Shown here piece by piece: positions 2,727-36,868 of a stretch of 64,000 bases of DNA (within the stretch, counting starts at the first letter, position 1; every line of letters starts with the position of its first letter). A program made the translations under genes and the position numbers. The notes beneath the pieces are model-generated. The model searched no databases. It was given only the letters and a program-made list of their open reading frames with translations, and was not told where the DNA came from. Origin of the DNA: Spongiibacteraceae bacterium (lineage in GTDB: Bacteria; Pseudomonadota; Gammaproteobacteria; Pseudomonadales; Dasaniaceae); the NCBI GenBank assembly GCA_028280715.1, contig JANQLG010000012.1, positions 62,211-126,210 of the forward strand. Reading direction: 5' to 3'.

Positions 2727-2749
2727 TCTATCGGTAGTAGATAATCTGT

Positions 2750-3271
2750 TTACTCAGCAGGCTGATCTTCCAGCTTGGTGGTTTCACGGGTATCCATGAT
2801 CGCTGCGATTTTCCAGCCCTGATCGGTACGGATGACAAAATAGGCTTCCTTAAAGCTTTGACGTTTTTCAGTACCGATTAGGATACGGACAGAGTGAGTT
2901 TCAATATCGGCCCATATCGTCGCGATATCGCCTTCTACCCGGCTATCGATAATGTTAGCCGTGCGAGTATAGGATCTGGTCATTTTAAAAATAACGGGAA
3001 TGATGCCCGACCAGTACTCTGGTAAATTCTCAGTCAAGCCTTTAGGGTCGACACCCGCATGGGCACTCTTGATCGTAAACTGCACACCACCATCGACCAT
3101 AGTGTTGATCAATCCTTCCTCATCCTCATTGGCAAAGGCGGCATTAAAATCCAGTACGACTTGCTCATGGGGTGCAGCTGCATATGACAATGAAGCCACC
3201 AGTAACCCTGCAATCAAAACTCCAGCCATCAAGCCCCAACTACCTAACAAGCGATGAACATATTTAGTCAT
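2750..3271 (-). CDS. Secreted NTF2-like/DUF4440-like protein
   Basis: Signal peptide MTKYVHRLLGSWGLMAGVLIAGLLVASLSYAAA followed by an NTF2/SnoaL-like fold pattern. The ORF-track start at 3331 probably over-extends, so 3271 is used. Confidence 0.45.
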   Translation of the reverse strand: MTKYVHRLLGSWGLMAGVLIAGLLVASLSYAAAPHEQVVLDFNAAFANEDEEGLINTMVDGGVQFTIKSAHAGVDPKGLTENLPEYWSGIIPVIFKMTRSYTRTANIIDSRVEGDIATIWADIETHSVRILIGTEKRQSFKEAYFVIRTDQGWKIAAIMDTRETTKLEDQPAE

Positions 3272-3447
3272 TTCTTTGCCCTTTACTCTGCTTATATTCT
3301 CGTGTTTTAAAATGCTAACAGTCTTGCTCACAGGGTTCCAAGAGATTGCCTATAGCAATAGCCAATATCTTGATTTACAACAAATAAAAGCCGTGTAATA
3401 TTTTCGTTCTGTCATTGTTAAACCAATAAATACATAAAGGGCATTTT

Positions 3448-23069: not shown

Positions 23070-23837
23070 TTAATCAATCACCTTTCGAAAAACCTCATCG
23101 TATGCACTTAACTTTACAGCATCACCAACGGGGACCTGTTCAGCTCTGTTTTTAATCGCATCGTAGCAGGACAACATATAATCCTGAATCTCCGGATTGA
23201 TATTTACCTTTGCGCTTTCAGTGAGATGCTGTTTTTCCACTAATAGCTGATCTATTAGTAAACTTATAGAATGACCCTGAAAATATCTATCCTTAAGATA
23301 TTGGAACGGTACAGGAGGGTTGGTATTTTCATCGACAATCCATTGTGCACAAAGTAATGACCTTAACGCATAGAGACAACTCTTGGCGTTATTCCATACC
23401 TTATCATCCTCCAGCTTTTTCTTTGCCATGGACAAATAATGGTAAAAAACTGCCTTGGCATTAAAAGACTGAGCGGCCAACTCCTTGAGCAAGACAACCT
23501 TCGATGTGTCCTGACGATAGACAATGGGAGAATAAAGCCATTCGAACAGTGGCCCATTACCCTTTTTTAGCAAGCGCAAGGACTTACCAATATCCCATCC
23601 ACCCGCATCCAGATCGCCAATGAATACTGTATCGATCACATCGCGTTTTTCAAAGGGCGATAGATACCAATGAGCTGGATGGCAATAGATAAAACGTACA
23701 TCGTAATCGCTGTCTTTAGATGCAAAGCCCCAGGCTCGACTACCTGTCTCAACTGCTAGCAGTATAGTAACGTCATTACTGGTTTCTATTTTCGTCAGCA
23801 AGCTGAGTATTTCTTGTTGTTTATTCACTGGTGTCAA
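23070..23837 (-). CDS. Pol-beta superfamily nucleotidyltransferase (RNA-repair-associated, RlaP-like)
   Basis: GS-x9-DxD signature (VETGSRAWGFASKDSDYDVRF). Overlaps the upstream paralogous NTase by 4 bp. Lies in a cca/rtcB context. Confidence 0.6.
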   Translation of the reverse strand: MTPVNKQQEILSLLTKIETSNDVTILLAVETGSRAWGFASKDSDYDVRFIYCHPAHWYLSPFEKRDVIDTVFIGDLDAGGWDIGKSLRLLKKGNGPLFEWLYSPIVYRQDTSKVVLLKELAAQSFNAKAVFYHYLSMAKKKLEDDKVWNNAKSCLYALRSLLCAQWIVDENTNPPVPFQYLKDRYFQGHSISLLIDQLLVEKQHLTESAKVNINPEIQDYMLSCYDAIKNRAEQVPVGDAVKLSAYDEVFRKVID

Positions 23838-24739
23838 TCGCCTTTAGCACGCAACACTATGGACTCAATTTCTCGCAGGGCTGCAACGGCTTTATCCTCC
23901 GTGACAATGCATGCATCTAATGAACCATAATGCTGCTCTAAACACTCAAGCAATAATGCTTTGATCGCCTGTTTATCGGCTGCCAGCGGCAATTGGCTAT
24001 CCAGGTAAAGTTGTTCCAATTGTTTTTCCTTATCCGCAAAGTAGTCTTCGACTTGTTGCTGCGTCCAATCTCCTCTACGGATCGCTTTTAACTGTTCTTT
24101 GTTTCTTGCTAAATCCAAATCCTGCTCAACCAGGATTTGTTCTATTTCATTCAACAGACGAACAACGTGATAAGCAAATTTCACATCGTAACCAAATTGT
24201 TCAATGATCTTTTGGCGACCACCTTCCGGAACCTTGGTACGCATTTTATGTATTTGCGCATAGGCATAACCTTTAAATCGCGCCCAGCTACCTTTATGTA
24301 GAAAAATATGTCGCTTTTCACGGACACGCTCACCCACTGCCGTGCTATATAGCACGCAGTTTCTAGGTACAAATAATGAATCGATGATATTGGGGTTGTT
24401 ATCCATTAACAGTCGAAAGTATTTAATGACCGAATAGATGGTTAGATCATATTCACGCCCCTTCCCGCCCATGGCTGATTTATCGATCATATGATGTTGC
24501 TGGATTTGTTCAAACATCGGCTCAGTATCATCGAAACCAGGTATCTCTCCACGCAAGTGAGGAAACACCCAATCACGTGGGGGAATCGCAAAACCATAGA
24601 CATCCATATCTGAATGATCTCCAGCGACACCATAGGCTATCGAACCCATCACCACTTCATATTGAACCGCTGTATCCAAAAATTTGGGAGGTGATTTTAA
24701 CAACCCCATTTTTATTAAATGCTGAGTTTTACTGCTCAT
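23834..24739 (-). CDS. Pol-beta superfamily nucleotidyltransferase (second, RlaP-like)
   Basis: MGSIAYGVAGDHSDMDVYGF nucleotidyltransferase motif. Directly downstream of cca. Confidence 0.6.
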   Translation of the reverse strand: MSSKTQHLIKMGLLKSPPKFLDTAVQYEVVMGSIAYGVAGDHSDMDVYGFAIPPRDWVFPHLRGEIPGFDDTEPMFEQIQQHHMIDKSAMGGKGREYDLTIYSVIKYFRLLMDNNPNIIDSLFVPRNCVLYSTAVGERVREKRHIFLHKGSWARFKGYAYAQIHKMRTKVPEGGRQKIIEQFGYDVKFAYHVVRLLNEIEQILVEQDLDLARNKEQLKAIRRGDWTQQQVEDYFADKEKQLEQLYLDSQLPLAADKQAIKALLLECLEQHYGSLDACIVTEDKAVAALREIESIVLRAKGD

Positions 24740-24765
24740 TACATCCTTTCCTTTTAGTAGCCGTT

Positions 24766-26001
24766 TTATACGGCAGAGCGCACACTAGCCATATACTTAG
24801 CTATCGCTGTAATTCTTAAACGCCTTATTTGTTCGGCCAACTTTACACCTTCATAGCCTTGTTCAAGCAACGGTTTAACATCAACATTCTTTGCCTCATC
24901 ACCACAGCGAATCAAAAGCTCGCCATTGGGATAATCTCGATGCTCTAAACCTTTTCTACCTCTAGCATCGGCTTCACAGGCCTGTGCAAAGTAGCGCACT
25001 CTTTCTGGCCTTCGAATACCATCAAGCGATTCCAGCAGACGCATGATCGAGCGCGGTTGCATTTCTAGCATTTTATGACAGCGCAAGTGATTTTTAGTCA
25101 CCTGTATAGCGATATCACGAAAGTCATTAGGCACTTTGTATCGCTCACAAACATGTTCAACCAGGGGAACGCCATTGTCCTCATGCCGAATATGTTTCGG
25201 CCACTCGTCTTCAGGGGTTAACCCTTTACCGAGATCGTGAAGTAAACCTGCCCAGGTGACCACCAGCTCATTATATTTAGATCGCGCCAAATCGATAACG
25301 GCCATCACATGATCCCCGGTATCAATCTCCGGATGATATTGCTCAGGCTGAGGAACACCAAACAAACAATCCACCTCAGGCAACAAAACCTTGAGTGCAC
25401 CACATTGTCTAAGCACAAGAAAAAACTCACTGGGTTTTGGCTCAGTTAATGCCCGAGACATTTCTTTCCAAACACGCTCTGGTGTTAATTCCTCTAATTC
25501 TCCCTCATCGACAAGCTGCTTCATCAATGCCAATGTGTCATCATGAACGGAAAAACCTAACTCTCCATAGCGGGCTGCAAATCTGGCAACCCTTAACACC
25601 CTAAGCGGATCTTCGACAAATGCCTCAGAAACATGGCGCAGTAATTTATTGCCTAAATCATCTCGCCCACCATATGGATCAACATAGCTACCATCTTCTT
25701 TTTTTGCGATGGCATTGATTGTCAGATCCCGGCGGGATAAATCATCTTCTAAGGTCACCTCTGGACCGAAATCACACACAAAGCCCGTATGCCCTTTACC
25801 CGATTTTCTTTCTGTTCTGGCCAGCGCGTATTCATCTTTTGTTTCTGGGTGAAGAAAACAGGGAAAATCATTACCAATTTGTTGGTAACCTAGCGACAAT
25901 AACTCCTCTTGGGTAGAGCCAACAACCACCCAATCTCTATCCGCTACGGGGCGACCAAGCAATTCATCACGGACCGCACCTCCTACTAAATATTTTTCCA
26001 T
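24766..26001 (-). CDS. cca: Multifunctional CCA-adding tRNA nucleotidyltransferase with HD domain
   Basis: Near-collinear with E. coli Cca (YLVGGAVRDELLGRPVADRDWVV...RDLTINA...HD domain LHDLGKG). The ATG at 26001 (MEKYLVGG) is used rather than the ORF-track start at 26019. Confidence 0.9.
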   Translation of the reverse strand: MEKYLVGGAVRDELLGRPVADRDWVVVGSTQEELLSLGYQQIGNDFPCFLHPETKDEYALARTERKSGKGHTGFVCDFGPEVTLEDDLSRRDLTINAIAKKEDGSYVDPYGGRDDLGNKLLRHVSEAFVEDPLRVLRVARFAARYGELGFSVHDDTLALMKQLVDEGELEELTPERVWKEMSRALTEPKPSEFFLVLRQCGALKVLLPEVDCLFGVPQPEQYHPEIDTGDHVMAVIDLARSKYNELVVTWAGLLHDLGKGLTPEDEWPKHIRHEDNGVPLVEHVCERYKVPNDFRDIAIQVTKNHLRCHKMLEMQPRSIMRLLESLDGIRRPERVRYFAQACEADARGRKGLEHRDYPNGELLIRCGDEAKNVDVKPLLEQGYEGVKLAEQIRRLRITAIAKYMASVRSAV

Positions 26002-26016
26002 TAATTCCACCAGTAA

Positions 26017-26055
26017 CAAAAAAAGCGGCTATTTATCTACTAATAAACAGCCGCT
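26017..26055 (-). terminator. Rho-independent terminator after the SPFH gene
   Basis: On the minus strand, AGCGGCT...AGCCGCT forms a 7-bp GC stem plus an extended AU stem, followed by TTTTTTT. It sits between the SPFH stop and the cca start. Confidence 0.55.
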
Positions 26056-26060
26056 TAACT

Positions 26061-27206
26061 TTAATTTGGGGACAATTTAACCAAGTCATTCAAGACACCG
26101 TCAAGACCACCATACACAGAGATCTTGTCGATACGCTCAGTGACTCGCTCCAATGACTCCAACTCTTTAAGCCGCAATAGGGTTGGGTTGTTTTCCATCA
26201 TTTTTGCGGTGTTATGCAATGAACGCATCGCTTGAGTTTCTTCGCGACGCTTGATCAAGTTTGCTTCAGCTTCTTTTTGAGCTTCTACTACCTGATTCAA
26301 AATCACTTTCATATCACCAGGCAAAACGATGTCCTTCACACCCACGCTTTGCAGCACAATACCGTATTCCTTGAATTTATCGCGAACACTTTCCGCAATA
26401 ACAGTATTGAGAGAGTCTTTATCCTCCAATAACTGGTCCAAAGTTTTGGTACCAACCGCTTCTCGCAAACGCAACTGCAGCTCACGATAGATGAAACCTG
26501 CGTAATCACTCAGCTTCAGTGCCACGATTTCTGGGCTATCGATACGATAACTCGCAGATAGATTGATTCGCAAACTGACACGATCCTTAGTCAAAATTTC
26601 TTGACCATTGACCTCTGCTACTTGCAAACGCATATCCAGTAACTTAACAACCACTGAACGATTGTATTTCCAGAAACCATAGCTACCTGGCTCTAAGATT
26701 TTTTCAAGCTTACCATTTACCAATAACAAACCCACATGTTCATCTGGCACTTCGTTGTAGCTAATCGCACGAGCAACTTCTTTACTCGCGCCAATCTTTA
26801 AGCCACGACCCAATAAACCAATTAACTTTTCATCAATTTGGTAATTGGCATCAATATCAATAACGTCGACGCGGACATCTTCAACATCTTTCCAGAATAC
26901 ATATAAAGAGCCTGGTGCCAACACATCCACTAAGTGACGATCTCGATAGATCAAGCCTACTTGAGTATCAGTCAATTCAACACGATCCAAATAGTCTGAA
27001 AGCTTATCAGCATAAGTATTTAGCAAGAATTTGGTATTCTTGTGCTCAAATTCCACAGCAGTGACATCATAGGTTTCAAGTTTTATATCACCACTGATAA
27101 TTTCCACACGGTGACGACCTGGACCTAATACACCAACAAATCGATTACGGCGATACATCAATGCCTTTTGACTATCAGCGATATCAATTGTTTTCCATAG
27201 CAACAT
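26061..27206 (-). CDS. Cytoplasmic SPFH/band-7 (slipin-like) domain protein
   Basis: 381 aa with no N-terminal TM. SPFH core plus a C-terminal coiled coil (EAQKEAEANLIKRREE). Confidence 0.7.
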   Translation of the reverse strand: MLLWKTIDIADSQKALMYRRNRFVGVLGPGRHRVEIISGDIKLETYDVTAVEFEHKNTKFLLNTYADKLSDYLDRVELTDTQVGLIYRDRHLVDVLAPGSLYVFWKDVEDVRVDVIDIDANYQIDEKLIGLLGRGLKIGASKEVARAISYNEVPDEHVGLLLVNGKLEKILEPGSYGFWKYNRSVVVKLLDMRLQVAEVNGQEILTKDRVSLRINLSASYRIDSPEIVALKLSDYAGFIYRELQLRLREAVGTKTLDQLLEDKDSLNTVIAESVRDKFKEYGIVLQSVGVKDIVLPGDMKVILNQVVEAQKEAEANLIKRREETQAMRSLHNTAKMMENNPTLLRLKELESLERVTERIDKISVYGGLDGVLNDLVKLSPN

Positions 27207-27570
27207 AATATTACTCCTTCTATTACAAACTTAATAAGGCGAGGCTCACCCAGGATCAACGAGGTTATTGATTTGCATACTTTAGGCAAAGAACAACAGC
27301 GGCTTGCTGCGTAATGATTCAAAGCATTTCCTAAGTTAAAAACTCTTCCTTAAACCGAGCTTTTACAATCATTACGGGTCAAACATGTTGTCTCCGCGTA
27401 AAGCATGAACCCATCAACAACGGCGATGATGCCGGCGTTTCAAACGTTGATAAACCTCATCAACGATTAAAACTATGAGCCTCTAACAGATTTTTATGCA
27501 AGGACCTGAACCTTGTGGGGACTCGAACCCCTAGTCTCTCGACTATACCAAGAGTCGTTTTTCAGACGAC

Positions 27571-27646
27571 GGTTACTTTGACAGGAATCGAACCTGCGGC
27601 CTATCGATTATGAGTCGACTGCTCTACCCAACTGAGCTACAAAGTA
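27571..27646 (-). tRNA. tRNA-Met/Ile2 (anticodon CAT), AU-rich acceptor stem
   Basis: Cloverleaf read by eye: acceptor UACUUUG/CAAAGUA, D-arm GCUC-AGUUGGGUA-GAGC, anticodon loop CUCAUAA, T-arm GCAGG-UUCGAUU-CCUGU, discriminator A, followed by CC. Confidence 0.75.
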
Positions 27647-27772
27647 CGGGCTTTAAGGTTTTGATACAGATTGGTACACACGACACCAGAGATGCTTGTG
27701 CCAGGCCGACATTCAGAGACGACTCCGCTAACCTGCCAACAACGGCTTAAAGTCTTTTGCAACTTGCTACGA

Positions 27773-28336
27773 TTAAGCAGCAAGCCAACATCTTTGCCCA
27801 CTAAAACGGGCTTTTAAGTATTCCATCTGATCACCACGAATCTGGCGATTATCCAGATACATAAATTCAAAAATATTCGGCGCAAAAGGAATGGCTAATA
27901 ATTCCATACCTGCTTGTTCTGGAGTACGACCACCTTTATGGTGATTGCACCGTTCACATGCAGCGACAACATTGGTCCAACAATCCTTACCACCTTGTAC
28001 ACGTGGCACAATGTGATCACGCGTTAACTGCCTGTTATCGAATTCCATTCCACAATACATACAACGTTGACCATCACGCCGAAACAACATCCTGTTAGTT
28101 AGCAGTGGTTCGAAGTTTTGTTTTCCAACATCACCACTGCAGGCAATGATCGGAGCTAGTTGCAAACTTGACTGCAAGCCTTCGCGGTTTACTCCACCAA
28201 AGATCCATAATGACTCAGAACCAAGACTCCAAATCACTTGCTCTTTTACATACATAGTGGCCGCTTCTTGACGGGTTACCCAAGCTTGAGGAACCCCTGA
28301 CTTATTCAATTTCAAAATGCGAGTTTGCTCTTTCAT
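27773..28336 (-). CDS. HNH endonuclease
   Basis: C-terminal HNH motif (CMYCG...LTRDHIVPRVQGG...CERCNHHKG). Embedded between the tRNA array and tRNA-Met. Confidence 0.85.
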   Translation of the reverse strand: MKEQTRILKLNKSGVPQAWVTRQEAATMYVKEQVIWSLGSESLWIFGGVNREGLQSSLQLAPIIACSGDVGKQNFEPLLTNRMLFRRDGQRCMYCGMEFDNRQLTRDHIVPRVQGGKDCWTNVVAACERCNHHKGGRTPEQAGMELLAIPFAPNIFEFMYLDNRQIRGDQMEYLKARFSGQRCWLAA

Positions 28337-28414
28337 ACTCCTACCTCTACTTCATCACTTTCACTCTCACAAATAAAGATGCACTTCCCCTGTGCGACTT
28401 ATCATCCGTAAGCT

Positions 28415-28492
28415 GGTACCCAAGGTGAGAGTCGAACTCACAAAATCAACAGATTCTAAATCTGCACGCTTTGCCAATTTGCGTACCTGGGT
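28415..28492 (-). tRNA. Atypical class-I tRNA with anticodon TAG (Leu-like D-arm and anticodon loop, no long variable arm)
   Basis: ACCCAGG-UA-CGC-AAAUUGGCAAA-GCG-U-GCAGA-UUUAGAA-UCUGU-UGAUUUU-GUGAG-UUCGACU-CUCAC-CUUGGGU-A-CCA. D-arm and anticodon loop resemble tRNA-Leu(UAG), but the variable region is only 7 nt. Confidence 0.55.
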
Positions 28493-28539
28493 AAATTTTG
28501 TGTGCACACATCCCTTGTGCTTGTCTTTCATCCTTAAAC

Positions 28540-28614
28540 TGGTTGGGGCAATGGGAATCGAACCCACCTCCGCCGGATTAAAAGTCCGGTGCACAACCGC
28601 TATGCCATACCCCA
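28540..28614 (-). tRNA. tRNA-Lys (anticodon TTT) with Gln-like U1-A72 body
   Basis: UGGGGUA.../...UGCCCCA-A-CCA acceptor. Anticodon arm CCGGA-CUUUUAA-UCCGG. T-loop UUCGAUU. Confidence 0.65.
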
Positions 28615-28630
28615 TCTTTCGAAAATAAAT

Positions 28631-28708
28631 TGGTCAGAGTGGTAGGACTCGAACCTACGACCCCCTCCATCCAAAGGAGGTGCGCTAACCAGACTGCGCT
28701 ACACTCTG
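28631..28708 (-). tRNA. tRNA-Pro (anticodon TGG)
   Basis: CAGAGUG-UAGCGCAGUCUGGUUAGCGC-A-CCUCC-UUUGGAU-GGAGG...GGUUCGAGUCC...CACUCUG-A-CCA. Confidence 0.8.
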
Positions 28709-28723
28709 AAAATCTTTTTACTA

Positions 28724-28798
28724 TGGAGTGCGCAACTGGAATCGAACCAGTGAAAACGGAAGTTGCAGTTCCGCGCATTACCTCTCTGCCACACGCAC
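28724..28798 (-). tRNA. tRNA-Cys (anticodon GCA)
   Basis: Anticodon arm CGGAA-CUGCAAC-UUCCG. Discriminator U73 then CCA. T-loop UUCGAUU. Confidence 0.75.
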
Positions 28799-28817
28799 TT
28801 TTTGCTCATTGTAAAAG

Positions 28818-28891
28818 TGGCTACGGTGTCCGGACTCGAACCGGAATCCTCGGAGTCAAAGTCCAATGCGTTACCATTTCGCCACACCGCA
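28818..28891 (-). tRNA. tRNA-Gln (anticodon TTG)
   Basis: U1-A72 start, discriminator G73 and CCA encoded. Anticodon arm UUGGA-CUUUGAC-UCCGA. T-arm UCCGG-UUCGAGU-CCGGA. Confidence 0.75.
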
Positions 28892-28901
28892 AAAAATTTG
28901 G

Positions 28902-28972
28902 GGTGATGCCGGGAATTGAACCCTGGTCTCCTGGTCCACAGCCAGGCGCTCTACCACTGAGCTAACATCACC
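28902..28972 (-). tRNA. tRNA-His (anticodon GTG), CCA not encoded
   Basis: GGUGAUG acceptor. D-arm GCUC-AGUGGUA-GAGC. Anticodon arm CCUGG-CUGUGGA-CCAGG. One mismatch in the T-stem. C73 is followed by CAA. Confidence 0.7.
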
Positions 28973-28978
28973 ACAATT

Positions 28979-29062
28979 TGGTGGGGAGGGAGTCGAACCC
29001 CCAAAGCTTTCGCGACGCGTTTACAGCGCGCTAGAGTTGCCACATCTCTTCTGTGCCTCCCC
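28979..29062 (-). tRNA. tRNA-Tyr (anticodon GTA), class II with long variable arm
   Basis: Anticodon loop CUGUAAA is identical to E. coli tRNA-Tyr. 3' end is ...UUCGACU-CCCUCCCC-A-CCA. The T-arm/acceptor register could not be resolved cleanly by eye. Confidence 0.55.
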
Positions 29063-29068
29063 GCTATT

Positions 29069-29143
29069 TGGCTGGCCTGGTAGGGGTCGAACCTACGATT
29101 CTCCGGTTAACAGCCGGACGCTTTACCACTCAGCTACAGACCA
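29069..29143 (-). tRNA. tRNA-Asn (anticodon GTT)
   Basis: UGGUCUG.../CAGGCCA-G-CCA. Anticodon arm UCCGG-CUGUUAA-CCGGA. T-arm GUAGG-UUCGACC-CCUAC. U1-A72 is normal for tRNA-Asn. Confidence 0.8.
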
Positions 29144-29235
29144 ACAATTTTTAAGCGACCACATTGTTAAAAAACAGCTACCGTGTTGGCGGGTAGCGCA
29201 CCATGTCATTCAAAAAAATTCTACCGTAAAAAAAC

Positions 29236-29269
29236 AAAACCCCGGCTGGGTTCACCAACCGGGGTTTTT
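29236..29269. terminator. Bidirectional rho-independent terminator between rtcA and the tRNA array
   Basis: AAAACCCCGGCTGG-GTTCA-CCAACCGGGGTTTTT. GC-rich 9-10 bp stem flanked by A/T runs on both sides. Confidence 0.6.
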
Positions 29270-29506
29270 GATTACAAACTCCACTCCGGTTGGCACTAGC
29301 CTCCCGGAATTTCCAAAAGACTAGATTTTCGTTTTTTCACCTACAGACATCACTAGGTGACTTACATTTTTATTAGGCAGACTTTGCCCCTGCTTGCGAC
29401 ACTGCAAACATAAAAACCTTTCATTTATTGACAAATCTTTTGTCGTTTTCCTAAATAAATGGCATATCAAATTAACGATTACCTCTACGCAAAAATTTAC
29501 AGACAT

Positions 29507-29550
29507 AAAAAAACCCGATAGATATTTTTCAAAAATACCTACCGGGTTTT
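29507..29550. terminator. Second hairpin with flanking A/T runs (possible terminator)
   Basis: AAAAAAACCCGATAG...CTACCGGGTTTT. Imperfect stem with a large loop. Confidence 0.3.
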
Positions 29551-29859
29551 AAACTTGTTTAAAGCTATTCAACCTGGAAGGCATAAGTGCCTTCCAAAAA
29601 GAAAGACACTGCTACCGATTATTCTCCACATGCGTGAGTGGGTTAATAACCATACGAATGCTATAACAGCACTGCATTAGGTTTTGTTGACCAAAAAATT
29701 TACTCATTACTTTTACTATTCGTTTTGCTTTATTTAAATCTTAATGAAAAATTAAAAAATTATTTCCATCAATTTAGTTGCAGCAATAATAGTATTCAAA
29801 ATTTCAAAGTCAACAAATTATTTATGAAAATATATACTTTATTAAAAAATTTATATTTT

Positions 29860-30885
29860 CTAAACACAAACCTCCCATACACCTTTTTCAATTTCACTCA
29901 ATTGAATATCAATATTCATTAACTGACTTATAATACTAATGTTAGTTAACAGGTGTTGACTTGGTTTTAGCGTTCGAAAAATACCACCCACACCCAATAC
30001 CATTGGCAACAACAACTGATCTGCCAGATATTCTCCTACACTAACATCAACTTTAAGGTAGCGTTTTACTTCTCGAATCGCCTTTTTTGCCACTCGCTCA
30101 GCACTAACACCATGCTCACCTACAACTTCTACCACTTCACTGACGTTTTCACTACACAAACGCAGTGAGAGAATATTGCCAGGACCTTGAGAACGTACAA
30201 GCTGTTGCTTAAGTGTCGACGCTGGCCACAACCCAATACGCCTAACTTGATCAAGTTCTCGTTCAGTAATATGCTCTGGTAAACACGCCGAAGTCGCAAC
30301 GGCTAAACGTGAAACTTCACGGCCACGTTCAACCAAATTTAGCCTTGTGGTTTTCTGCACTGGATAAATTCTTACACGCCAGGCACCACCGCCAGCAGGA
30401 TAAAAACCATAACGTTGTAACTCGACATCAGCCCGATAGCCCATTTGTGCAATAGCTGGCAAAAAACACTCAGCAATAAAATCAAAGCTAGGCGCAAATC
30501 CGTTATGTGTGCCACCTTCGAGATAAATTTCACTCACCTCTTTAGCGAATAACAGTGGCATATATACTGTTTGGAAAACCAAACTGGTACTGCCAGCTGA
30601 ACCCACTGAGAATCGGTATTCTCCAGCTTTAATCATCCCTGGCCTAAAAGTAACTTCCCTAGAACCCAATTCATCACCGGTTATTTCTGCATCGCAAATC
30701 ATTTGCGCAGCTCGTAGGCAAGTTAAGTGCTGCCGCAGCAAACCAGGCTTGGAACGACCTGCACGAATATTTTGTATTCGCACCGATTTTCCTAAACACA
30801 TTGCCAGGGTCAATGACGTTCGAAATATCTGTCCGCCACCCTCTCCTAATGAACCATCTATTACAATCACACTATTTTTCCTCAT
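29860..30885 (-). CDS. rtcA: RNA 3'-terminal phosphate cyclase
   Basis: Collinear with E. coli RtcA (IDGSLGEGGGQIFRTSLTLA...RAGRSKPGLLRQHL...FYPAGGG...GEYLADQLLLPM). Start taken at the ATG at 30885 (MRKNSV). The ORF-track TTG extension translates the upstream tRNA-like element. Confidence 0.9.
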   Translation of the reverse strand: MRKNSVIVIDGSLGEGGGQIFRTSLTLAMCLGKSVRIQNIRAGRSKPGLLRQHLTCLRAAQMICDAEITGDELGSREVTFRPGMIKAGEYRFSVGSAGSTSLVFQTVYMPLLFAKEVSEIYLEGGTHNGFAPSFDFIAECFLPAIAQMGYRADVELQRYGFYPAGGGAWRVRIYPVQKTTRLNLVERGREVSRLAVATSACLPEHITERELDQVRRIGLWPASTLKQQLVRSQGPGNILSLRLCSENVSEVVEVVGEHGVSAERVAKKAIREVKRYLKVDVSVGEYLADQLLLPMVLGVGGIFRTLKPSQHLLTNISIISQLMNIDIQLSEIEKGVWEVCV

Positions 30886-31177
30886 GTTTATTTGGTGGAC
30901 GTGACGGGATTCGAACCCGCGTATAACAACAACCAAGGCATTACTCTTGGTCAGTCATAGACTTGGAAACGCGCGCCAGCTGACACCCGCATTAGAGCAT
31001 CGAGCCTGCATCCTCAACCGTACATCTATCACTGATTACGTTGCCACCAGTTTTACCCGGCTACCTTCATGCTAATCATTTTAGGTAGTGACACTCCCTA
31101 CGCATCAGCACACCCTATAATCTCAAACAAATAGTGCCGTCCCTTGGCACTATCCCTTGGTACAATGAAACATCCCT
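30886..31177 (-). ncRNA. Candidate structured ncRNA in the rtcB-rtcA spacer, ending in a tRNA-like T-arm/acceptor/ACCA module (Y-RNA/YrlA-like?)
   Basis: The 292 nt between rtcB stop and rtcA start has no convincing ORF. The minus-strand 3' end reads ...GCGGG-UUCGAAU-CCCGU-CACGUCC-A-CCA and sits immediately before the rtcA ATG. An anticodon-like hairpin ACCAAG-AGUAAUGC-CUUGGU lies just upstream. A distal GGGUGUG (about 230 nt upstream) could pair with the CACGUCC acceptor strand. Confidence 0.35.
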
Positions 31178-32404
31178 TTACCCTTTTACACACACCACTT
31201 GTTTTAAGGTGTACACGATTTCCACTAAATCCTGTTGCGCCTCCATCACTTTATCGATGGGCTTGTACGCAGCCGGTGTTTCATCAATCACACCTTTGTC
31301 TTTTCGGCACTCAACATCCGCTGTTGCCTGAAGGTGCTCTTCCAAAGACACCATTTTTTTTGCTTTAGTGCGCGACATCACGCGACCTGCACCATGGCTA
31401 CAACTACAGAAGCTTTCTTCGTTGCCAAGTCCGCGAACAATGTAAGACCGAGCTCCCATGCTTCCGGGGATAATACCCATTTCACCTTCGCGAGCGCGTA
31501 CCGCACCTTTGCGTGTAACCAACACATCTTTTCCATAGTGGTGCTCGCGAGACACATAATTATGATGACAGTTCACCGCTTCCATCCGCGCCTCAAAGAT
31601 CATCCCTAATTCTTCGGTAACCGCTGCGATAACACGAGCCATCATTACTTCTCGGTTAATACGTGCAAAATTTTGTGCCCATTCCACCGCTTCGACATAC
31701 TCATCAAAATGTTCAGTACCTTCTGGCAAGTAAGACAGGTCACTATCAGGCAAATGAATATGCCAACGCTCCATATCTTTCTTAGCCACTTCAATAAAGT
31801 GCGTACCAATGCAGTTACCAACACCACGTGAGCCGCTATGCAACATAAACCATACTCGACCATACTCATCCAAACACACTTCGATAAAGTGGTTGCCAGT
31901 ACCTAAAGTACCCAGATGGTTAATGTTGTTGGTATTTTTCAATACCGGATGTTTATCTACTAACACATCAAATTGTGCTGACAGCGGCATCCAGGCTTTC
32001 ATCACATCATCAGGGACATTACACCACGCACCTTTATCCCGCTTACCGCGCAAACGCCTTGAACGACCATGCGGTACTGCTTTTTCAATCGCATCACGAA
32101 TACCGGCCAAGCTATCAGGCAACTGCTCCGCGGTCAGGCTGGTTCGCACCGCCATCATCCCGCAGCCGATATCTACTCCAACGGCTGCAGGAATCACCGC
32201 ACCTAATGTAGGAACGACGCTGCCAATTGTTGCACCCTTGCCAAGGTGGACATCCGGCATTGCCGCCACCCATTGATGAATAAAGGGCATTCGCGAAATA
32301 TTCTTTAATTGCTCTTTAGCATCTTCTTCAAAAGGAACGCCTCGGGTCCAAGTTTTGATAGGTACACCACCGTCTTGCATTACTTCATAGCGCTCTTGAG
32401 TCAT
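31178..32404 (-). CDS. rtcB: RNA-splicing ligase RtcB
   Basis: 408 aa with canonical RtcB motifs (MPDVHLGKG, GTGNHFIE, CHHNY, SCSHGAGR). Divergent from rtcR. Confidence 0.95.
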   Translation of the reverse strand: MTQERYEVMQDGGVPIKTWTRGVPFEEDAKEQLKNISRMPFIHQWVAAMPDVHLGKGATIGSVVPTLGAVIPAAVGVDIGCGMMAVRTSLTAEQLPDSLAGIRDAIEKAVPHGRSRRLRGKRDKGAWCNVPDDVMKAWMPLSAQFDVLVDKHPVLKNTNNINHLGTLGTGNHFIEVCLDEYGRVWFMLHSGSRGVGNCIGTHFIEVAKKDMERWHIHLPDSDLSYLPEGTEHFDEYVEAVEWAQNFARINREVMMARVIAAVTEELGMIFEARMEAVNCHHNYVSREHHYGKDVLVTRKGAVRAREGEMGIIPGSMGARSYIVRGLGNEESFCSCSHGAGRVMSRTKAKKMVSLEEHLQATADVECRKDKGVIDETPAAYKPIDKVMEAQQDLVEIVYTLKQVVCVKG

Positions 32405-32469
32405 TGCCTTGTCCTTTAAGTACTGAGTACTTATTAATAATTTTTATCCCATCTCTTTGCCTATGAGTA

Positions 32470-32486
32470 TTGCGAAGGCAGTGCCA
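32470..32486 (-). promoter_or_regulatory. Sigma54-type promoter (-24 TGGCAC, -12 TCGCA) upstream of rtcB
   Basis: The minus strand reads TGGCAC-TGCCT-TCGCAA about 65 nt upstream of the rtcB start. Matches the GG-N10-GC consensus expected for RtcR-dependent rtcBA transcription. Confidence 0.5.
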
Positions 32487-32631
32487 ACATTCTTAAAAAG
32501 GTAGAAAATATTTTTATCTTATTGTTTTTAAAGGTTTTATTTTTAGCAGAGTAAAAATTCAAGAAGTTTATCATTCGATTGAATGTATATTTTTATATCT
32601 ATTTTGATATCTATATATTATATTTGATAGC

Positions 32632-34224
32632 ATGAAAACCGTAGCGATCAGCATTCTAGGTACCACTATGGACCGTCGTGGTAAGGGCGAAAAACGCTGG
32701 GACAAATGGCGCCCCACCATTTCCATGTGCCAACACGATGACCTATTGATTGATCGTCTGGAACTGCTATTCGACAACCACTCGCAGAGCCTGGCTGAGC
32801 AAGTCAAAGAGGATATCGCCCGCGTCTCTCCAGAAACCGAAGTGATTTATCACCACGTCAACTTTCATGACCCCTGGGATTTTGAAACGGTCTATGGCGA
32901 ATTGCTCGACTTTGCACGAGGCTATTCTTTTAAACCAAGTAAAGAGCGCTACCTAACACACATCACAACCGGCACCCACGTTGCTCAAATCTGCTTGTAT
33001 CTGTTGACCGAAGCTGGCTACCTGCCAGGCCAATTAATCCAAACATCCCCGGCACCTAGAAACAGTAATGTAGCAGGCCAATATCAAATTATTGATCTGG
33101 ACTTATCCAAGTACGATCAAATTGCGTCGCGCTTTAAAAAGGAGCACTTTGAAGGCACCACTTACTTAAAGGGAGGAATAAAAACCAATAACAAAGCCTT
33201 TAACCAAATGATCGAGCAATTGGAGCAGGTATCGATTCGCTCAAGTGAGCCGATTCTTTTAACTGGCCCCACCGGCGCCGGCAAATCACAACTGGCCCAA
33301 CGGATTTATTCACTAAAAAAACAGCGCGGCCTAATCAGCGGTAATTTGGTCGTCGTCAACTGTGCGACCTTAAAAGGTGAGAATGCCATGTCTGCGTTAT
33401 TTGGCCATAAGAAAGGCGCCTTTACCGGTGCAACAACCGATAGAGCAGGCCTGCTTCGCGAAGCCGATGGCGGCATGTTATTTCTGGATGAAATTGGAGA
33501 ACTTGGTACGGACGAGCAAGCCATGCTGCTACGCGCAATAGAAGATAAAAAATTTATGCCATTCGGCGCTGACAAAGAAACCACCAGCAATTTCTTATTA
33601 ATCGCTGGTACTAATCGCGATTTGAGCGGTCAAGCTCAACGGGGAGAATTCCGCGAGGATTTACACGCCCGCATTGATTTGTGGACCTATCGACTACCTT
33701 CACTTTCAGAAAGGATGGAGGACTTCGAACCAAATCTCGATTATGAACTGGAGAATTACTCCACCAAAACCGGTTATCTCATCAGCTTTAACAAAGATGC
33801 CAGAAAAAAATACCTGCAGTTCGCAACATCGACAGAAGCCACATGGTCAGCCAATTTTCGGGACCTCAATGCCAGCATTACACGCATGGCAACCCTGGCC
33901 AATGGCGGTAGGATTACTGTAAGCGTCGTTAATGAAGAAATTGACCGACTGCAACACAAGTGGCAATCGACAAGCAATAAAAGCCACACCAATGACACAA
34001 CATTACTCAAATCCATTCTCGGTGAAAACAAGATTAAGTCACTGGACTTATACGAGCAGATGACACTAGCACCGGTATTAAAAATTTGTCAAAGCGCCAA
34101 CTCTATGGCCGAAGCAGGAAGAATCCTCTTCAATGTGAGCCGGGAGCAGAAAAAATCCAATAACGACTCACATCGGATAAAACAGATCCTGGATAAACAC
34201 CAGATTAAGTTTGGCGACCTATGA
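32632..34224 (+). CDS. rtcR: Sigma54-dependent transcriptional activator RtcR (CARF-AAA+-HTH)
   Basis: N-terminus collinear with E. coli RtcR (KTVAISILGTTMDRRGKGEKRWDKWRPT...HITTGTHVAQICLYLL). Central AAA+ sigma54-interaction domain (LLTGPTGAGKS...GAFTGA...LFLDEIGEL). Confidence 0.9.
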   Translation: MKTVAISILGTTMDRRGKGEKRWDKWRPTISMCQHDDLLIDRLELLFDNHSQSLAEQVKEDIARVSPETEVIYHHVNFHDPWDFETVYGELLDFARGYSFKPSKERYLTHITTGTHVAQICLYLLTEAGYLPGQLIQTSPAPRNSNVAGQYQIIDLDLSKYDQIASRFKKEHFEGTTYLKGGIKTNNKAFNQMIEQLEQVSIRSSEPILLTGPTGAGKSQLAQRIYSLKKQRGLISGNLVVVNCATLKGENAMSALFGHKKGAFTGATTDRAGLLREADGGMLFLDEIGELGTDEQAMLLRAIEDKKFMPFGADKETTSNFLLIAGTNRDLSGQAQRGEFREDLHARIDLWTYRLPSLSERMEDFEPNLDYELENYSTKTGYLISFNKDARKKYLQFATSTEATWSANFRDLNASITRMATLANGGRITVSVVNEEIDRLQHKWQSTSNKSHTNDTTLLKSILGENKIKSLDLYEQMTLAPVLKICQSANSMAEAGRILFNVSREQKKSNNDSHRIKQILDKHQIKFGDL

Positions 34225-34980
34225 AGCACCAAAACCTTCCACGACAGACTTCCATAACACTTCAAACTCCATAGTGAACGCCTTGTAGCTGGCCGTTTCA
34301 GATTTTAAACGCGCCTCCTCTATAGCGTCATTAGAATTCCATATGGTGTGACGCTGCTCTTCTTTTTCAGTTATTTCCGCTACTCCGTAAACAAACCCTG
34401 TTCGAACATCAATCAAAGCACCAGAAGTTGTTGAAGAAACGTAGGCTTTTTGGTTGGGAATAAAACCCAGGCTCACCAGTGACAATGGACCAAGCGGCGT
34501 TCCCTCCACATGAAATACCGTTTCAACGGAATAGATCAGCAAAAGATCCGTCTTAAGCCTTGCAGCCGAACGCCTTAGATCTTTCAAAGATGTAAGTTCT
34601 GCGGGCAGCAATAAACGACTCATCGGCGCAATAGCCGAAATCATAGGCAGCCTTGCAAGGCGCGACAAATCCTCATCACTTTCTATATCCCGATTAGTAA
34701 TCACACTATAGCGCCCTGAACCATAACCATGATTGGTCTTAGTGAAATACCCCGACGCCTGAACCCGAATAACCGCAAGCCTGGCCGGAAAACCACTGGC
34801 AGGCTCAACATTCATAAGGTCTGCAATATCCTCATCGGTTAATGCTGTAATATTGACTCCACCAGCAGGCGTTGTGTAGGTAGCCGCACAGCCCTGAAGA
34901 ACTAATAGGAGAATTACAACACCAATACTCTTACTCTTGGCAAACCTGAATACAGATAAATAAATTGCTATACAATTCAT
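34219..34980 (-). CDS. Lipoprotein, hypothetical
   Basis: Lipobox LLLVLQGC. No family recognised. Confidence 0.45.
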   Translation of the reverse strand: MNCIAIYLSVFRFAKSKSIGVVILLLVLQGCAATYTTPAGGVNITALTDEDIADLMNVEPASGFPARLAVIRVQASGYFTKTNHGYGSGRYSVITNRDIESDEDLSRLARLPMISAIAPMSRLLLPAELTSLKDLRRSAARLKTDLLLIYSVETVFHVEGTPLGPLSLVSLGFIPNQKAYVSSTTSGALIDVRTGFVYGVAEITEKEEQRHTIWNSNDAIEEARLKSETASYKAFTMEFEVLWKSVVEGFGAS

Positions 34981-35061
34981 GACTAACTCCCTGGAATGGT
35001 TAAATATACTGTCAGTCTAGAGTTAGCATGATTTTGGCAATAGCGTCAGTTAAGCCGTAAA

Positions 35062-35991
35062 ATGGTCTTCACAGATAAAAATAATTGTGTTATGGCAAAC
35101 CTATACAGCAAAATTCATCGTTTAAAAGCTCAAGGGTGGACATGGGATAAATTTCTTCAGGAAATTGAAAAACACTACCCAGCCGGGTTAGAAGAAAAAA
35201 CACTTAAAGCTCATTTTAAACAGCCGCACCGAAAAGCGTCTAACCATGTAACCCAAGCTATAGAAACGGTCCACAATATATATTTTCCTTCACCCTTCCC
35301 TGAAGATATTGAAGCTTTAGTGCGAATCTATAATCGATTGTTAAAAAATACCTCTCACGCGCCCACCGATGAAAACATTAATGATCTATCTCTGTTTATA
35401 TCCGGCGAACTAAAACAATCGCGAAACCAAAATTTACTTCGCGATGTTCGTTTACATTGGTTAAAGGCTAATATTTATTTCGACCAGCTACCCAACTTGC
35501 GCCAATCAGGCAACAAGGCATTATTACTGGAAACTAAAAACACCGCTATTAAACACTACTATCTCGCGATAGAATTGATCAACCATCACAACGCTACTCA
35601 AAACCCTCCTAGCGTAAGTGAGTTTGTTTTATATAAACTGCAACAGAATATCTTAGCTTGTCATCTGAACTCAGTAGTGCCAGACAAACGCCTTACAGAT
35701 AAAGCTGTTTTAAACCATTTAAAGGAATCTGATTTTTTCCTACAGAGTAAAACCGTTCTAGAACAGGAACCGTTTCAGTGGGTGGTCGCAAGAAATGGAT
35801 TGCGCTTTAGCTCTATCACTAAAAATAAGGATGATTGCCAGTGGTTCTTTAACGCGCTTATCAAATCCAATAAACATTTTGAAGATTTAAACTATAGTCC
35901 TGTAGGCTATCCAGCAATCATTAACAGCATGGAATTTGATTGGGCTATTGAACATATTTTAAATGATAAAAATAGAATCCAAGACGAGTAA
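35062..35991 (+). CDS. Hypothetical protein (309 aa)
   Basis: Long ORF with helical-repeat-like composition. No motif recognised. Confidence 0.4.
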   Translation: MVFTDKNNCVMANLYSKIHRLKAQGWTWDKFLQEIEKHYPAGLEEKTLKAHFKQPHRKASNHVTQAIETVHNIYFPSPFPEDIEALVRIYNRLLKNTSHAPTDENINDLSLFISGELKQSRNQNLLRDVRLHWLKANIYFDQLPNLRQSGNKALLLETKNTAIKHYYLAIELINHHNATQNPPSVSEFVLYKLQQNILACHLNSVVPDKRLTDKAVLNHLKESDFFLQSKTVLEQEPFQWVVARNGLRFSSITKNKDDCQWFFNALIKSNKHFEDLNYSPVGYPAIINSMEFDWAIEHILNDKNRIQDE

Positions 35992-36008
35992 ATATATGGG
36001 AGATAACA

Positions 36009-36194
36009 ATGACATATAAGTTAAAGCGAACACTTTTAGCCCTATCAATCATCGCTTTACTCATATCAGGCTGCTCGACAAGTAATTATCATATTGATTG
36101 TGATATATCCTCAACGCCAGAGAATAATGAACTGTGCTCACCCGCTTCAGAGCAGAAAAAAAATGATGAAGATGATATGGAGAGAATGGATTAA
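36009..36194 (+). CDS. Small lipoprotein (61 aa)
   Basis: Signal plus lipobox LLISGCS, acidic C-terminus. Confidence 0.35.
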   Translation: MTYKLKRTLLALSIIALLISGCSTSNYHIDCDISSTPENNELCSPASEQKKNDEDDMERMD

Positions 36195-36199
36195 GCAAC

Positions 36200-36868
36200 T
36201 CATATCCAGGTTATACCATCAGGCAAGACATAATCACTGTACTCAACATGCAAGACTCTTCTATATGAAGCATCATTAGACTTACTCGATGCATGCAACA
36301 GATGCGGTCGCATCGCTAAAGCGGAACCGGCTCTTCCTGTAATATGATCTGCCTTATGAGACTGCACATAACGATTAATGCGCTCTTGCGTCATTTTCTC
36401 ATCTTGATGACTACCGGGAATAACCTTTAAACACCCGTTTTCTTTTGTTACCTCATCAAGATGAATTCTAAAGGTCACCATGCGATTAAGTACATCAATG
36501 GTTGGCTGCACATGATGAATACCATCCTTAACACTCCATGGCCCCCAGCCAGTCATTTCAAACTGATCAGATACAGCGATGGTTTTATCCTGATGCCAAG
36601 TTACAAGCCAATTATTGTCAGGGGATTTTATAAAGAGTATTGCTCTAACCAGATTCGGAGTTCCCGACAAATAATAACCCACCTTCTTAAGGACACAATC
36701 CGAATATACTAATTCCTTAACAGACTCGAGTTTCTTTTCAGCATTTCGTAACCCACCCACTCGTCCGGGCTCTATTGCCAATTCATCTAATTCGGATAAA
36801 ACCTTATCTATAGATTTAGCAGTTAGAAAACCATCAATTAATTCAAAACCCACTTCTGAAAAAGACAT
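36200..36868 (-). CDS. Phytanoyl-CoA dioxygenase (PhyH)-family Fe(II)/2OG oxygenase
   Basis: 222 aa with an HxD...H-like arrangement typical of the PhyH family. Assignment by recollection. Confidence 0.5.
   Translation of the reverse strand: MSFSEVGFELIDGFLTAKSIDKVLSELDELAIEPGRVGGLRNAEKKLESVKELVYSDCVLKKVGYYLSGTPNLVRAILFIKSPDNNWLVTWHQDKTIAVSDQFEMTGWGPWSVKDGIHHVQPTIDVLNRMVTFRIHLDEVTKENGCLKVIPGSHQDEKMTQERINRYVQSHKADHITGRAGSALAMRPHLLHASSKSNDASYRRVLHVEYSDYVLPDGITWI

Follow-up and report, generated by a model that had tools for sequence, protein, structure and literature searches.

What occupies the 292 nucleotides (nt) that separate rtcB from rtcA in the RNA-repair locus of a Spongiibacteraceae bacterium? 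The locus lies on the minus strand of a 64,000-nt stretch of contig JANQLG010000012.1 (positions 62,211 to 126,210; assembly GCA_028280715.1), referred to here as the window. A sequence-only reading of the window had noticed that this spacer lacks a credible open reading frame (ORF) and ends in a tRNA-like module, and had proposed a structured noncoding RNA, either a YrlA-like Y RNA or an interrupted tRNA or tRNA remnant. A protein-coding gene was rejected, as no minus-strand ORF of at least 40 amino acids is present in the spacer. Comparison with homologues indicated that the spacer encodes a 223-nt RNA element built on a tRNA-like core (Table 1). The noncoding RNA family to which it belongs appears to be new and has termini like those of transfer-messenger RNA (tmRNA).

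The module from which the sequence-only reading started was confirmed on the minus strand (30920-30893): T-stem, UUCGAAU loop, acceptor strand CACGUCC, discriminator A and encoded CCA, with the tmRNA model aligning to the acceptor and T-arm. The rtcA ATG begins 7 nt past this CCA, the minus strand reading ...UAUACGCGGGUUCGAAUCCCGUCACGUCCACCA-AAUAAAC-AUG (the end of the strand being ...ACGCGGGUUCGAAUCCCGUCACGUCCACCA). The partner of the acceptor 3′ strand had been placed in a GGGUGUG about 230 nt upstream. This heptamer (31115-31109) pairs at all seven positions, and the distance was roughly right, the two strands lying 205 nt apart in an RNA of 223 nt overall. It had also been stated that no matching 5′ acceptor strand lies nearby; as a correction, a nearer GGGUGUC (30988-30982) pairs at only six of seven positions, and the local Infernal match to the tmRNA model had used it as the 5′ strand. 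We rejected this heptamer, which would give a 96-nt RNA, because it belongs to an invariant core and shows no covariation with the 3′ strand. The proposed long closing stem with a large insert was backed by covariation in 21 diverged homologues.

Homologues were drawn from the 80 genome loci with the closest RtcB, from metagenomes and from PLSDB plasmids. The genome loci were screened by blastn, nhmmer and then a covariance model, and the element was found in four of these best 80. It lies between rtcB and rtcA in an Agarilytica metagenome-assembled genome (MAG; locus L005), 3′ of rtcA and followed by a terminator in a gammaproteobacterial MAG (L004), between a sigma-54-type promoter and rsr in Budvicia aquatica (DSM 5075; L078), and after rsr and one YrlA gene, before another YrlA gene, in a further gammaproteobacterial MAG (L074). 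In many other loci of this set the similarity was limited to the T-arm of canonical YrlA genes 5′ of rtcB (Rfam scores of 69-82 bits), and the long rtcB-rtcA gaps of L009 and L010 held unrelated sequence. The metagenomes were scanned with the pattern TGAGGATGCAGG-N15-45-CTGGCGCGC, which consists of the two blocks invariant in the first five sequences. The scan returned at least 120 loci; among the matches listed, to which all metagenome-derived family counts given here refer, about half were chance matches in coding sequence and the rest were full-length elements. More than 65 homologues from beta- and gammaproteobacterial genomes and metagenomes were obtained in this way among the matches listed. 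Those fished by the internal motif all carry the same T-arm/acceptor/ACCA module, and their acceptor stem covaries, which, with the tmRNA model alignment, lifts the match above chance. Sequence profiles, not the pattern, yielded the four genome-derived members, two of which (L074 and the Budvicia locus) also match it.

Since most homologues are metagenomic and many are near-identical, we took 21 representatives that share less than 92% identity with one another, and 48-83% with the window, for a MAFFT alignment (A1). A covariance model built from the 21 representatives (R1) scored the element at 207.8 bits, as the sole full-length copy in the window, the element being itself one of the 21 training sequences. 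Among the matches listed, R1 scored more than 50 metagenome members at 139-230 bits; about 20 of the representatives among these were training sequences, and L107, L158, L201 and others were not. The only PLSDB match, in Eleftheria terrae, is plasmid-borne, lies directly upstream of rtcB and scored 225.5 bits, so that cultured carriers number at least two (Eleftheria terrae P9846-PB and Budvicia aquatica DSM 5075, whose copy has a T-arm insertion). Viral contigs gave no match to the two core motifs, and neither the INPHARED phages nor 5,426 complete E. coli genomes gave a blastn match.

RNAalifold applied to A1 returned 52 base pairs, of which 34 showed compensatory double changes. The fraction of paired cells was 95.3%, compared to 36-46% when the pairing partners were slid by 1-3 columns; the same displacement reduced the pairs with compensatory changes from 34 to 14-20 and the covariation score from 0.518 to 0.08-0.15. 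None of 500 shuffles attained the observed value on any measure. The structure prediction and the pair counts share one MAFFT alignment, a dependence that the slid-partner and shuffle controls address only partly. Of all cells, 18.7% were G-U pairs, and pairing fell from 95% to 77% when the opposite strand was read, which places the RNA on the strand of the rtc genes. Folded as a single sequence, the 292-nt spacer was unremarkable (z = -1.3), and the case for the fold therefore rests on comparison rather than thermodynamics. The suggestion of a structured noncoding RNA in the spacer was in this sense borne out, by covariation among homologues that keep the terminal module. R1 also picked up ordinary tRNAs at 17-34 bits, confirming the tRNA likeness of the core, D-arm included.

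The predicted architecture follows a tRNA from the 5′ end. The acceptor stem (nt 1-7/213-219) had compensatory changes at five of its seven pairs, with 99.3% of cells paired. It is followed at tRNA spacing by two linker bases and a D-stem (A1 columns 11-13/26-28; 100% paired, two of three pairs covarying) closed by an 11-nt loop, GCGUAGGGAGU. The loop has a conserved AGGGA and, at positions 18-19, GG; G19 does not vary, and A17, G20 and G22 hardly do. The next stem, at the anticodon-arm position, was misaligned by MAFFT and for that reason falls outside the RNAalifold structure. It varies in step across homologues (CCACC/GGUGG, CUGCC/GGCAG, CACCC/GGGUG), and its loop, about 14-20 nt long across the family, leaves no anticodon. 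A short hairpin then follows in which all four pairs covary (A1 columns 61-64/71-74) and U61, A62 and A65 of the GUAAAA hexaloop are invariant.

At the variable-arm site a large domain emerges. Compensatory changes were present at all four pairs of its closing CAAC/GUUG helix (A1 columns 78-81/218-221) and at nine of the ten pairs of an inner helix (columns 106-115/182-191). The latter encloses the most conserved part of the RNA, invariant blocks of 13 and 12 bases, which would form an interrupted helix with a small apical hairpin; its two outer pairs covary (UA/CG/GC), and the other pairs never vary. The anticodon-arm-like hairpin described earlier, ACCAAG-AGUAAUGC-CUUGGU (30952-30931), is present within this domain as a GACCAA/UUGGUU stem with compensatory changes at six of six pairs (columns 192-197/212-217). 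In its loop AGUAAUG is conserved in gamma-type members, and beta-type members have a different sequence. The T-arm covaries, as does the D-arm, and of the 62 distinct family sequences 50 have UUCGAAU as the T-loop. The alignment thus shows a predicted tRNA-like core with an enlarged anticodon loop and a variable arm turned into a 134-nt domain. In the window, this acceptor/D/T core is combined on the rtc strand with both invariant blocks inside the covarying 10-bp helix, the combination by which we propose to recognize the family.

Insertions were seen at several places. Those at helix tips, about 290 nt in L004 (7500-7800) and 75 nt with three hairpins in L005 (7430-7505), show where the RNA tolerates expansion. 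Insertions of about 60 nt in the T-loop/T-arm were found in Budvicia aquatica DSM 5075 (L078 3560-3655) and in a metagenome relative of the window (L107 2400-2488). Both contain CCCGAAGGG-YGAGG, and a near-identical Budvicia-type sequence (L108) is free of the insertion, which could be a small mobile insertion or mini-intron.

The acceptor end carries the identity set of tRNA-Ala. G3:U70 was present in 58 of the 62 distinct sequences, A73 in 61 and CCA in 61, and G1:C72 and G2:C71 were each kept in 20 of the 21 representatives. In the same stem, pairs 5, 6 and 7 switch freely among G-C, A-U and G-U. This conservation is not a search artefact, since the homologues were found by an internal motif outside the acceptor stem. 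G3:U70 in an acceptor helix suffices for charging of minihelices and tmRNA by alanyl-tRNA synthetase (AlaRS); going by such work, the set kept here is enough for AlaRS recognition. The substrate determinant of RNase P is a 7-bp acceptor stem with a T-arm. Because the three outer pairs and A73 are kept while neighboring pairs covary, we infer recognition and probable charging of the RNA by AlaRS.

Searches with Rfam 15 of the spacer and 10 kb around it returned at E ≤ 10 only a sub-threshold match to the tmRNA model (RF00023; 20.0 bits where the gathering score is 47; E 6.9e-05 over 10 kb), local and limited to the acceptor and T-arm. Within the tmRNA group (RF00023 and clan CL00001), the permuted-tmRNA model gave 14-18 bits. 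None of the YrlA, tRNA (RF00005) and group I intron models that the sequence-only reading had recommended matched the spacer, and no intron family, group I or group II, did so at E ≤ 10. ARAGORN called nine tRNAs in the window and Rfam eight, none at the element. The YrlA model (RF02553, gathering score 69 bits) had no match on 30850-31220 at E ≤ 10, nor did the YrlB model, and the YrlA model finds YrlA at 69-82 bits in related loci. None of the full texts searched describes the RNA; the topics covered were Rtc, Ro/Y RNA, RlaP, SPFH, tRNA arrays and the discovery of noncoding RNAs at large scale.

Genomic context was mapped by tblastn with the window proteins and Budvicia Rsr, by tRNA scans and with Pfam. 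The element is always co-oriented with RNA-repair genes, and on contigs that extend far enough rtcR usually lies upstream in divergent orientation. The commonest arrangement is SPFH-element-rtcB, in which RtcB is of the Burkholderiales type (the beta-type RtcBs sampled were not from Pseudomonas). The order rtcB-element-rtcA of the window recurs in L005, L126 and L168, and further loci have rsr-(YrlA)-element-rtcB, rtcB-element-SPFH, rtcA-element-terminator (L004) or promoter-element-rsr (Budvicia). In L150 an HNH gene and the element lie inside a 25-tRNA array, and in L094, L131 and L162 a strong terminator and an AT-rich stretch, which could be a promoter, precede an element that heads a tRNA array; no RtcR match was found on the contig stretch examined in these three. 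A polynucleotide kinase/T4-Rnl1-type ligase fusion replaces RtcB in L082, L140 and L199 (domain-scanned in L199). An rsr gene adjoins the element in about a third of family loci and an SPFH gene does so in others; separate YrlA genes adjoin it in L074, L078, L097, L130, L153 and L196. This free position in the operon argues for a gene for a trans-acting RNA rather than a cis-regulatory leader. The element goes with RNA repair and tRNA back-up generally, not with RtcB as such.

Several side observations concern these loci. The stretches in which the element lies in or heads arrays of 17-25 tRNA genes are 2207-3642 and 5283-9911 of L094, where a LysR regulator and a KptA/Tpt1 RNA 2′-phosphotransferase are just upstream, and 3631-7794 of L150. 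In L199 (1330-3576, minus strand), as in L082 and L140, the neighbors of the element are a fusion of 492 amino acids, with a P-loop polynucleotide kinase (AAA_33) and a T4 Rnl1-type RNA ligase, and a DUF6988 protein. Two to four tandem YrlA-like genes lie between rsr and rtcB in L078 (5255-5945), L074 (3305-4030) and L202 (4500-4980); some score below the Rfam gathering score, and one (L078 5380-5417) has a tRNA-like 3′ part ending in CCA.

We consider it reasonably probable, from these comparisons, that the element represents a family of tRNA mimics of about 210-250 nt in RtcR-controlled repair operons and tRNA arrays, which would be processed, act in trans and probably accept alanine. RtcR is activated by damaged tRNAs (PMC7790460, PMC10159003). 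Upon tRNA damage, the element would be co-transcribed with rtcB and rtcA from the RtcR/sigma-54 promoter. The transcript would be cut in the manner of a tRNA, by RNase P at G1 and by 3′ trimming back to CCA, and the free RNA would be recognized, and probably charged, by AlaRS. By analogy with Y RNAs, it may act in trans as a modular molecule. The tRNA-like end would engage the tRNA-handling machinery (AlaRS, EF-Tu, the CCA-adding enzyme, RNase P or tRNA-directed nucleases), and the invariant core would dock another partner, either a member of the repair response or a factor that this response requires. Candidate roles include rescue of stalled ribosomes, alanine delivery, protection from or titration of tRNA nucleases, and feedback on RtcR. 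In a bolder version, the family would be a second class of RNA that, like tmRNA, is charged with alanine: a giant mimic of tRNA-Ala, induced by stress, that brings alanine or itself to stalled ribosomes or another acceptor while the ligase induced alongside it mends cleaved tRNAs, with the core as the handle for a dedicated protein partner; we offer this as a speculation that is itself unlikely to be right.

A number of observations weigh against a conserved, alanine-accepting tRNA mimic. Four of the 62 sequences have G3:C70, and one of them, L074, in addition has A2:U71 and a 3′ end of CCG; the exceptions, with G:C in place of the G:U or another alteration of the stem, are a small subfamily (L074, L126 and L161) and L133. 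Alanine charging can therefore not be essential in every member. The T-arm insertions in L078 and L107 might disrupt the tRNA elbow. As the metagenome search demanded the core motif, the invariance of the core is partly built in. Most close RtcB operons lack the element, and so does Scleromatobacter humisilvae, even though its RtcB shares 89% identity with the RtcB of a locus that has the element. The element is thus dispensable, an accessory rather than a core part of Rtc repair.

The alternatives differ in which of these features they accommodate. The termini bring tmRNA to mind: the two ends of the RNA meet, as in tmRNA (SsrA), in an acceptor stem with G3:U70, A73, CCA and an adjacent T-arm, a big domain lies between, and tmRNA is the only Rfam family with any match to the element. 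A tag-less relative of tmRNA, alanine-charged and co-induced with the ligase, could enter stalled ribosomes (for instance those idling after tRNA cleavage) and aid rescue. The tmRNA/tRNA-Ala identity set (G1-G3, G3:U70, A73, CCA) is kept in 58-61 of 62 sequences, such operons are induced by tRNA damage or translational stress (PMC7790460, PMC8421152), and PrfH-RtcB provides a precedent for a rescue factor paired with RtcB (PMC9304027). We nevertheless regard it as quite unlikely. By eye, gamma- and beta-type members share no conserved tag reading frame or resume codon; a candidate tag peptide, ...VEDAGSML*, for which both the window and L004 have an open frame, as does L005 across its 75-nt insert, was rejected because it is not kept in beta-type members, where the ...AGSML* frame has no nearby stop (by eye). 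A D-stem and an extra arm stand in the place of the single-stranded D-loop analogue to which SmpB binds in tmRNA, the model score of 20 bits stayed below 47, ARAGORN called neither a tmRNA nor a tag peptide, and four members lack G3:U70. On the grounds of frame, SmpB site and score, tmRNA itself was rejected as well; unlike that universal housekeeping gene, the element is an accessory gene borne by operons. The linkage to RtcR points elsewhere, to a decoy that soaks up tRNA-directed nucleases, or to a sensor that, when nicked, yields 2′,3′-cyclic-phosphate fragments binding the RtcR CARF domain and tuning the operon. The linkage is tight, and nicked tRNAs do activate RtcR (PMC10159003). To trap anticodon nucleases, however, a decoy should resemble an anticodon loop, and the element has none (its one look-alike loop varies between subfamilies). 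This alternative explains neither the kept G3:U70 nor the invariant core, and L094, L131 and L162 carry the element with no RtcR match on the contig stretch examined, so we consider it unlikely. A cis-acting role, as a tRNA-like RNase P signal or a leader that uncouples or regulates the downstream gene (here rtcA), would fit the finding that the element always lies within or at the edge of operons on the same strand, and in the window the region where the rtcA ribosome-binding site would lie overlaps the acceptor 3′ strand. It is very unlikely given that the downstream neighbor may be rtcB, rtcA, rsr, SPFH, tRNAs or a terminator (L004), that some copies are separate units after a terminator, and that a processing signal has no need of a 134-nt domain with an invariant core.

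Membership of the YrlA/Y RNA family, with binding to Rsr (Ro60), was the first suggestion of the sequence-only reading, and we now hold it to be highly improbable. YrlA is likewise a noncoding RNA of RtcR-controlled RNA-repair operons (rsr-yrlBA-rtcBA) and likewise modular, a tRNA mimic with a UUCGA-type T-arm and a D-arm joined to a second domain. In M. smegmatis, YrlA has a 7-bp acceptor-like stem; RNase P cuts this RNA, and CCA is added to it in vivo (PMC4201824). The T-arm of the element resembles that of YrlA enough to produce blastn and nhmmer matches, and rsr is adjacent in part of the family. However, YrlA is about 110 nt long, against 210-250 nt for the element family, and its topology is the opposite: the ends of YrlA form the Rsr-binding stem around an internal tRNA-like part, whereas those of the element form an acceptor stem with alanine marks and encoded CCA. 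No YrlA or YrlB model matched at E ≤ 10, and no GNCGAA(N)G, the proposed Rsr contact near the 5′ end of YrlA (PMC4201824), was seen by eye near the 5′ end of the element. True YrlA genes stand side by side with it in some loci, and about half of the loci have no rsr nearby. The latter include the window as far as it was scanned: the earlier statement that rsr is missing held for ten neighboring ORFs (Pfam, 23834-36868), among which no Ro60/TROVE domain was found. Class II tRNAs, with their long variable arm, and tRNA-Ala also invite comparison. The element has an acceptor stem, a D-arm and a T-arm that follow one another and are spaced as in a tRNA, together with the acceptor identity elements of tRNA-Ala, and its extra domain emerges exactly at the variable-arm site of tRNA-Leu, tRNA-Ser and tRNA-Tyr. 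It differs in a variable arm of about 134 nt rather than 10-20 nt, which holds its most conserved sequence, and in a loop of 14-20 nt in place of the 7-nt anticodon loop; neither Rfam nor ARAGORN tRNA models call it. The island has an HNH endonuclease gene and many extra tRNA genes, and two members have T-arm insertions, as might be expected of a tRNA gene that an insertion or intron has disrupted, a tRNA in decay, or a tRNA/tmRNA 3′ end duplicated by an integrating element. We give such origins next to no credence: the whole 223 nt are conserved with compensatory changes across two proteobacterial classes, the insert is the best conserved part, and no intron or tRNA model matches. An intron-bearing tRNA was rejected also because deleting the insert leaves an 18-nt loop from which no 7-nt anticodon loop can be recovered. 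The genomic setting itself is similar to that of L-arrays (PMC8421152), the same kind of island with long tRNA arrays and HNH and rtcB neighbors. In cyanobacteria these consist of ordinary tRNA genes and are induced by translational stress, and the text of that paper makes no mention of "tRNA-like" (PMC8421152).

Rtc operons are a model of RNA repair whose physiological substrates and cofactors are debated, and the noncoding RNAs described for them in the literature consulted are the Y RNAs YrlA and YrlB. With the element, these operons would gain a second RNA component, one that is larger, is better conserved at the sequence level and unites a true tRNA acceptor end, the alanine identity set and a new conserved domain. 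It raises the questions whether a repair-operon RNA is aminoacylated, what binds the invariant core, and whether repair after tRNA damage has an RNA cofactor. ARAGORN and Rfam 15 miss the element, leaving an unexplained gap of 200-300 bp in the rtc operons of gene tables.

Table 1. Coordinates of the predicted element, its parts and neighboring features in the window (nt, numbering within the element)
Feature	Coordinates	Strand	Details
Whole element, 223-nt tRNA-like noncoding RNA	30893..31115	-	G1 at 31115, terminal CCA at 30895-30893; ends set by the covarying acceptor stem
Acceptor stem 5′ strand, GGGUGUG (G1-G7)	31109..31115	-	7/7 pairs with 30897-30903, including G3:U70
D-arm-like hairpin	31090..31106	-	nt 10-12/24-26; 3-bp stem G10-C26, A11-U25, U12-G24
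Arm at anticodon-arm position	31061..31088	-	nt 28-32/51-55; 5-bp stem CUACC/GGUAG; 18-nt loop beginning UAAAAUG
Hairpin CCGG-GUAAAA-CUGG	31047..31060	-	nt 56-59/66-69; conserved hexaloop
Giant "variable-arm" domain	30927..31043	-	closed by helix CAAC (31043-31040)/GUUG (30930-30927), nt 73-76/186-189
10-bp helix round the conserved core	30953..31033	-	31033-31024/30962-30953, nt 83-92/154-163
Conserved core	30970..31016	-	UUGAGGAUGCAGG (invariant nt 99-111) and CUGGCGCGC (invariant nt 137-145, nearly so to nt 149)
"Anticodon-like" hairpin	30931..30952	-	nt 164-169/180-185; 6-bp stem GACCAA/UUGGUU; 10-nt loop GAGUAAUGCC
T-arm GCGGG-UUCGAAU-CCCGU	30904..30920	-	nt 196-200/208-212; stem 30920-30916/30908-30904, 100% paired
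Acceptor 3′ strand CACGUCC	30897-30903	-	U70 at 30899
Discriminator A73 (A220 of the element)	30896	-	followed by encoded CCA, 30895-30893
10-bp hairpin, then UUUGUUUG	31130..31155	-	in the 62-nt linker from the rtcB stop codon to the element
rtcB (RNA 3′-phosphate/5′-OH ligase)	31178..32404	-	PF01139, E 1.6e-133; upstream of the element, same strand
rtcA (RNA 3′-phosphate cyclase)	29860..30885	-	PF01137, E 3.4e-76; ATG 30885-30883
Candidate sigma-54-type promoter TGGCACTGCCTTCGC	32472..32486	-	upstream of rtcB; one mismatch to TGGCAC-N5-TTGC
rtcR (CARF + sigma-54 activator)	32632..34224	+	divergent regulator; PF06956, E 7.4e-85; PF00158, E 1.2e-46
tRNA-array/RNA-repair island	23834-29143	-	8 tRNA genes: Asn, His, Gln, Cys, Pro, Lys, Leu, Met
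HNH endonuclease	27773-28336	-	island 3′ of rtcA
SPFH/Band-7 protein	26061-27206	-	island 3′ of rtcA
CCA-adding-type PolyA_pol+HD enzyme	24766-26019	-	island 3′ of rtcA
RlaP nucleotidyltransferase	23834-24739	-	island 3′ of rtcA

The sigma-54-type promoter upstream of rtcB likely marks the start of a predicted rtcB-element-rtcA transcript. The same promoter form, TGGCACGCTTATCGC, lies 50 nt 5′ of the element in Budvicia, and L082 has a perfect match 31 nt 5′. At the stringency used, the window contains seven such matches against 5.5 expected in shuffles, which is no excess, and the promoter call rests on position and context for this reason. In L123 and L140, the sigma-54 promoter of L082 has apparently been deleted. 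The linker between rtcB and the element (31116-31177) folds at -16.6 kcal/mol (z = -2.64), and its modeled hairpin is a possible partial terminator or processing site.

Downstream of rtcA the order is two terminator-ended short units, eight tRNA genes, HNH, SPFH/Band-7, the CCA-adding-type nucleotidyltransferase and RlaP, the last of which has a biochemical tie to tRNA repair (PMC12776372). Some array tRNAs do not encode CCA, and tRNA-Met ends in ...A-CCG (by eye), which fits the co-encoded nucleotidyltransferases. The two short units, between rtcA and the tRNA array (29236-29830, minus strand), have a sigma-70-like promoter (29813-29786) and strong intrinsic terminators at 29550-29510 and 29268-29236. 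Rfam matches there were limited to weak His_leader and rnk-leader hits, and the units could be small RNAs or leader peptides.

Two further RNA-like pieces were noticed in the array. Between tRNA-Asn and tRNA-His, an uncalled cloverleaf-like RNA (28978-29066, minus strand) has an acceptor stem GGGGAGG/CCUCCCC-A-CCA, an arm GCGCG-CUGUAAA-CGCGU in which the anticodon would be GUA, a long extra arm and a T-arm. ARAGORN makes no call there, matches to tRNA-Sec, YrlA and R1 are weak, and from its predicted fold the RNA looks like an aberrant class II tRNA-Tyr. Right after tRNA-Met, a small tRNA-like piece that no tool annotates (27505-27560, minus strand) is preceded by a hairpin and carries a T-arm AGGGG-UUCGAGU-CCCCA inside a 5-bp stem.

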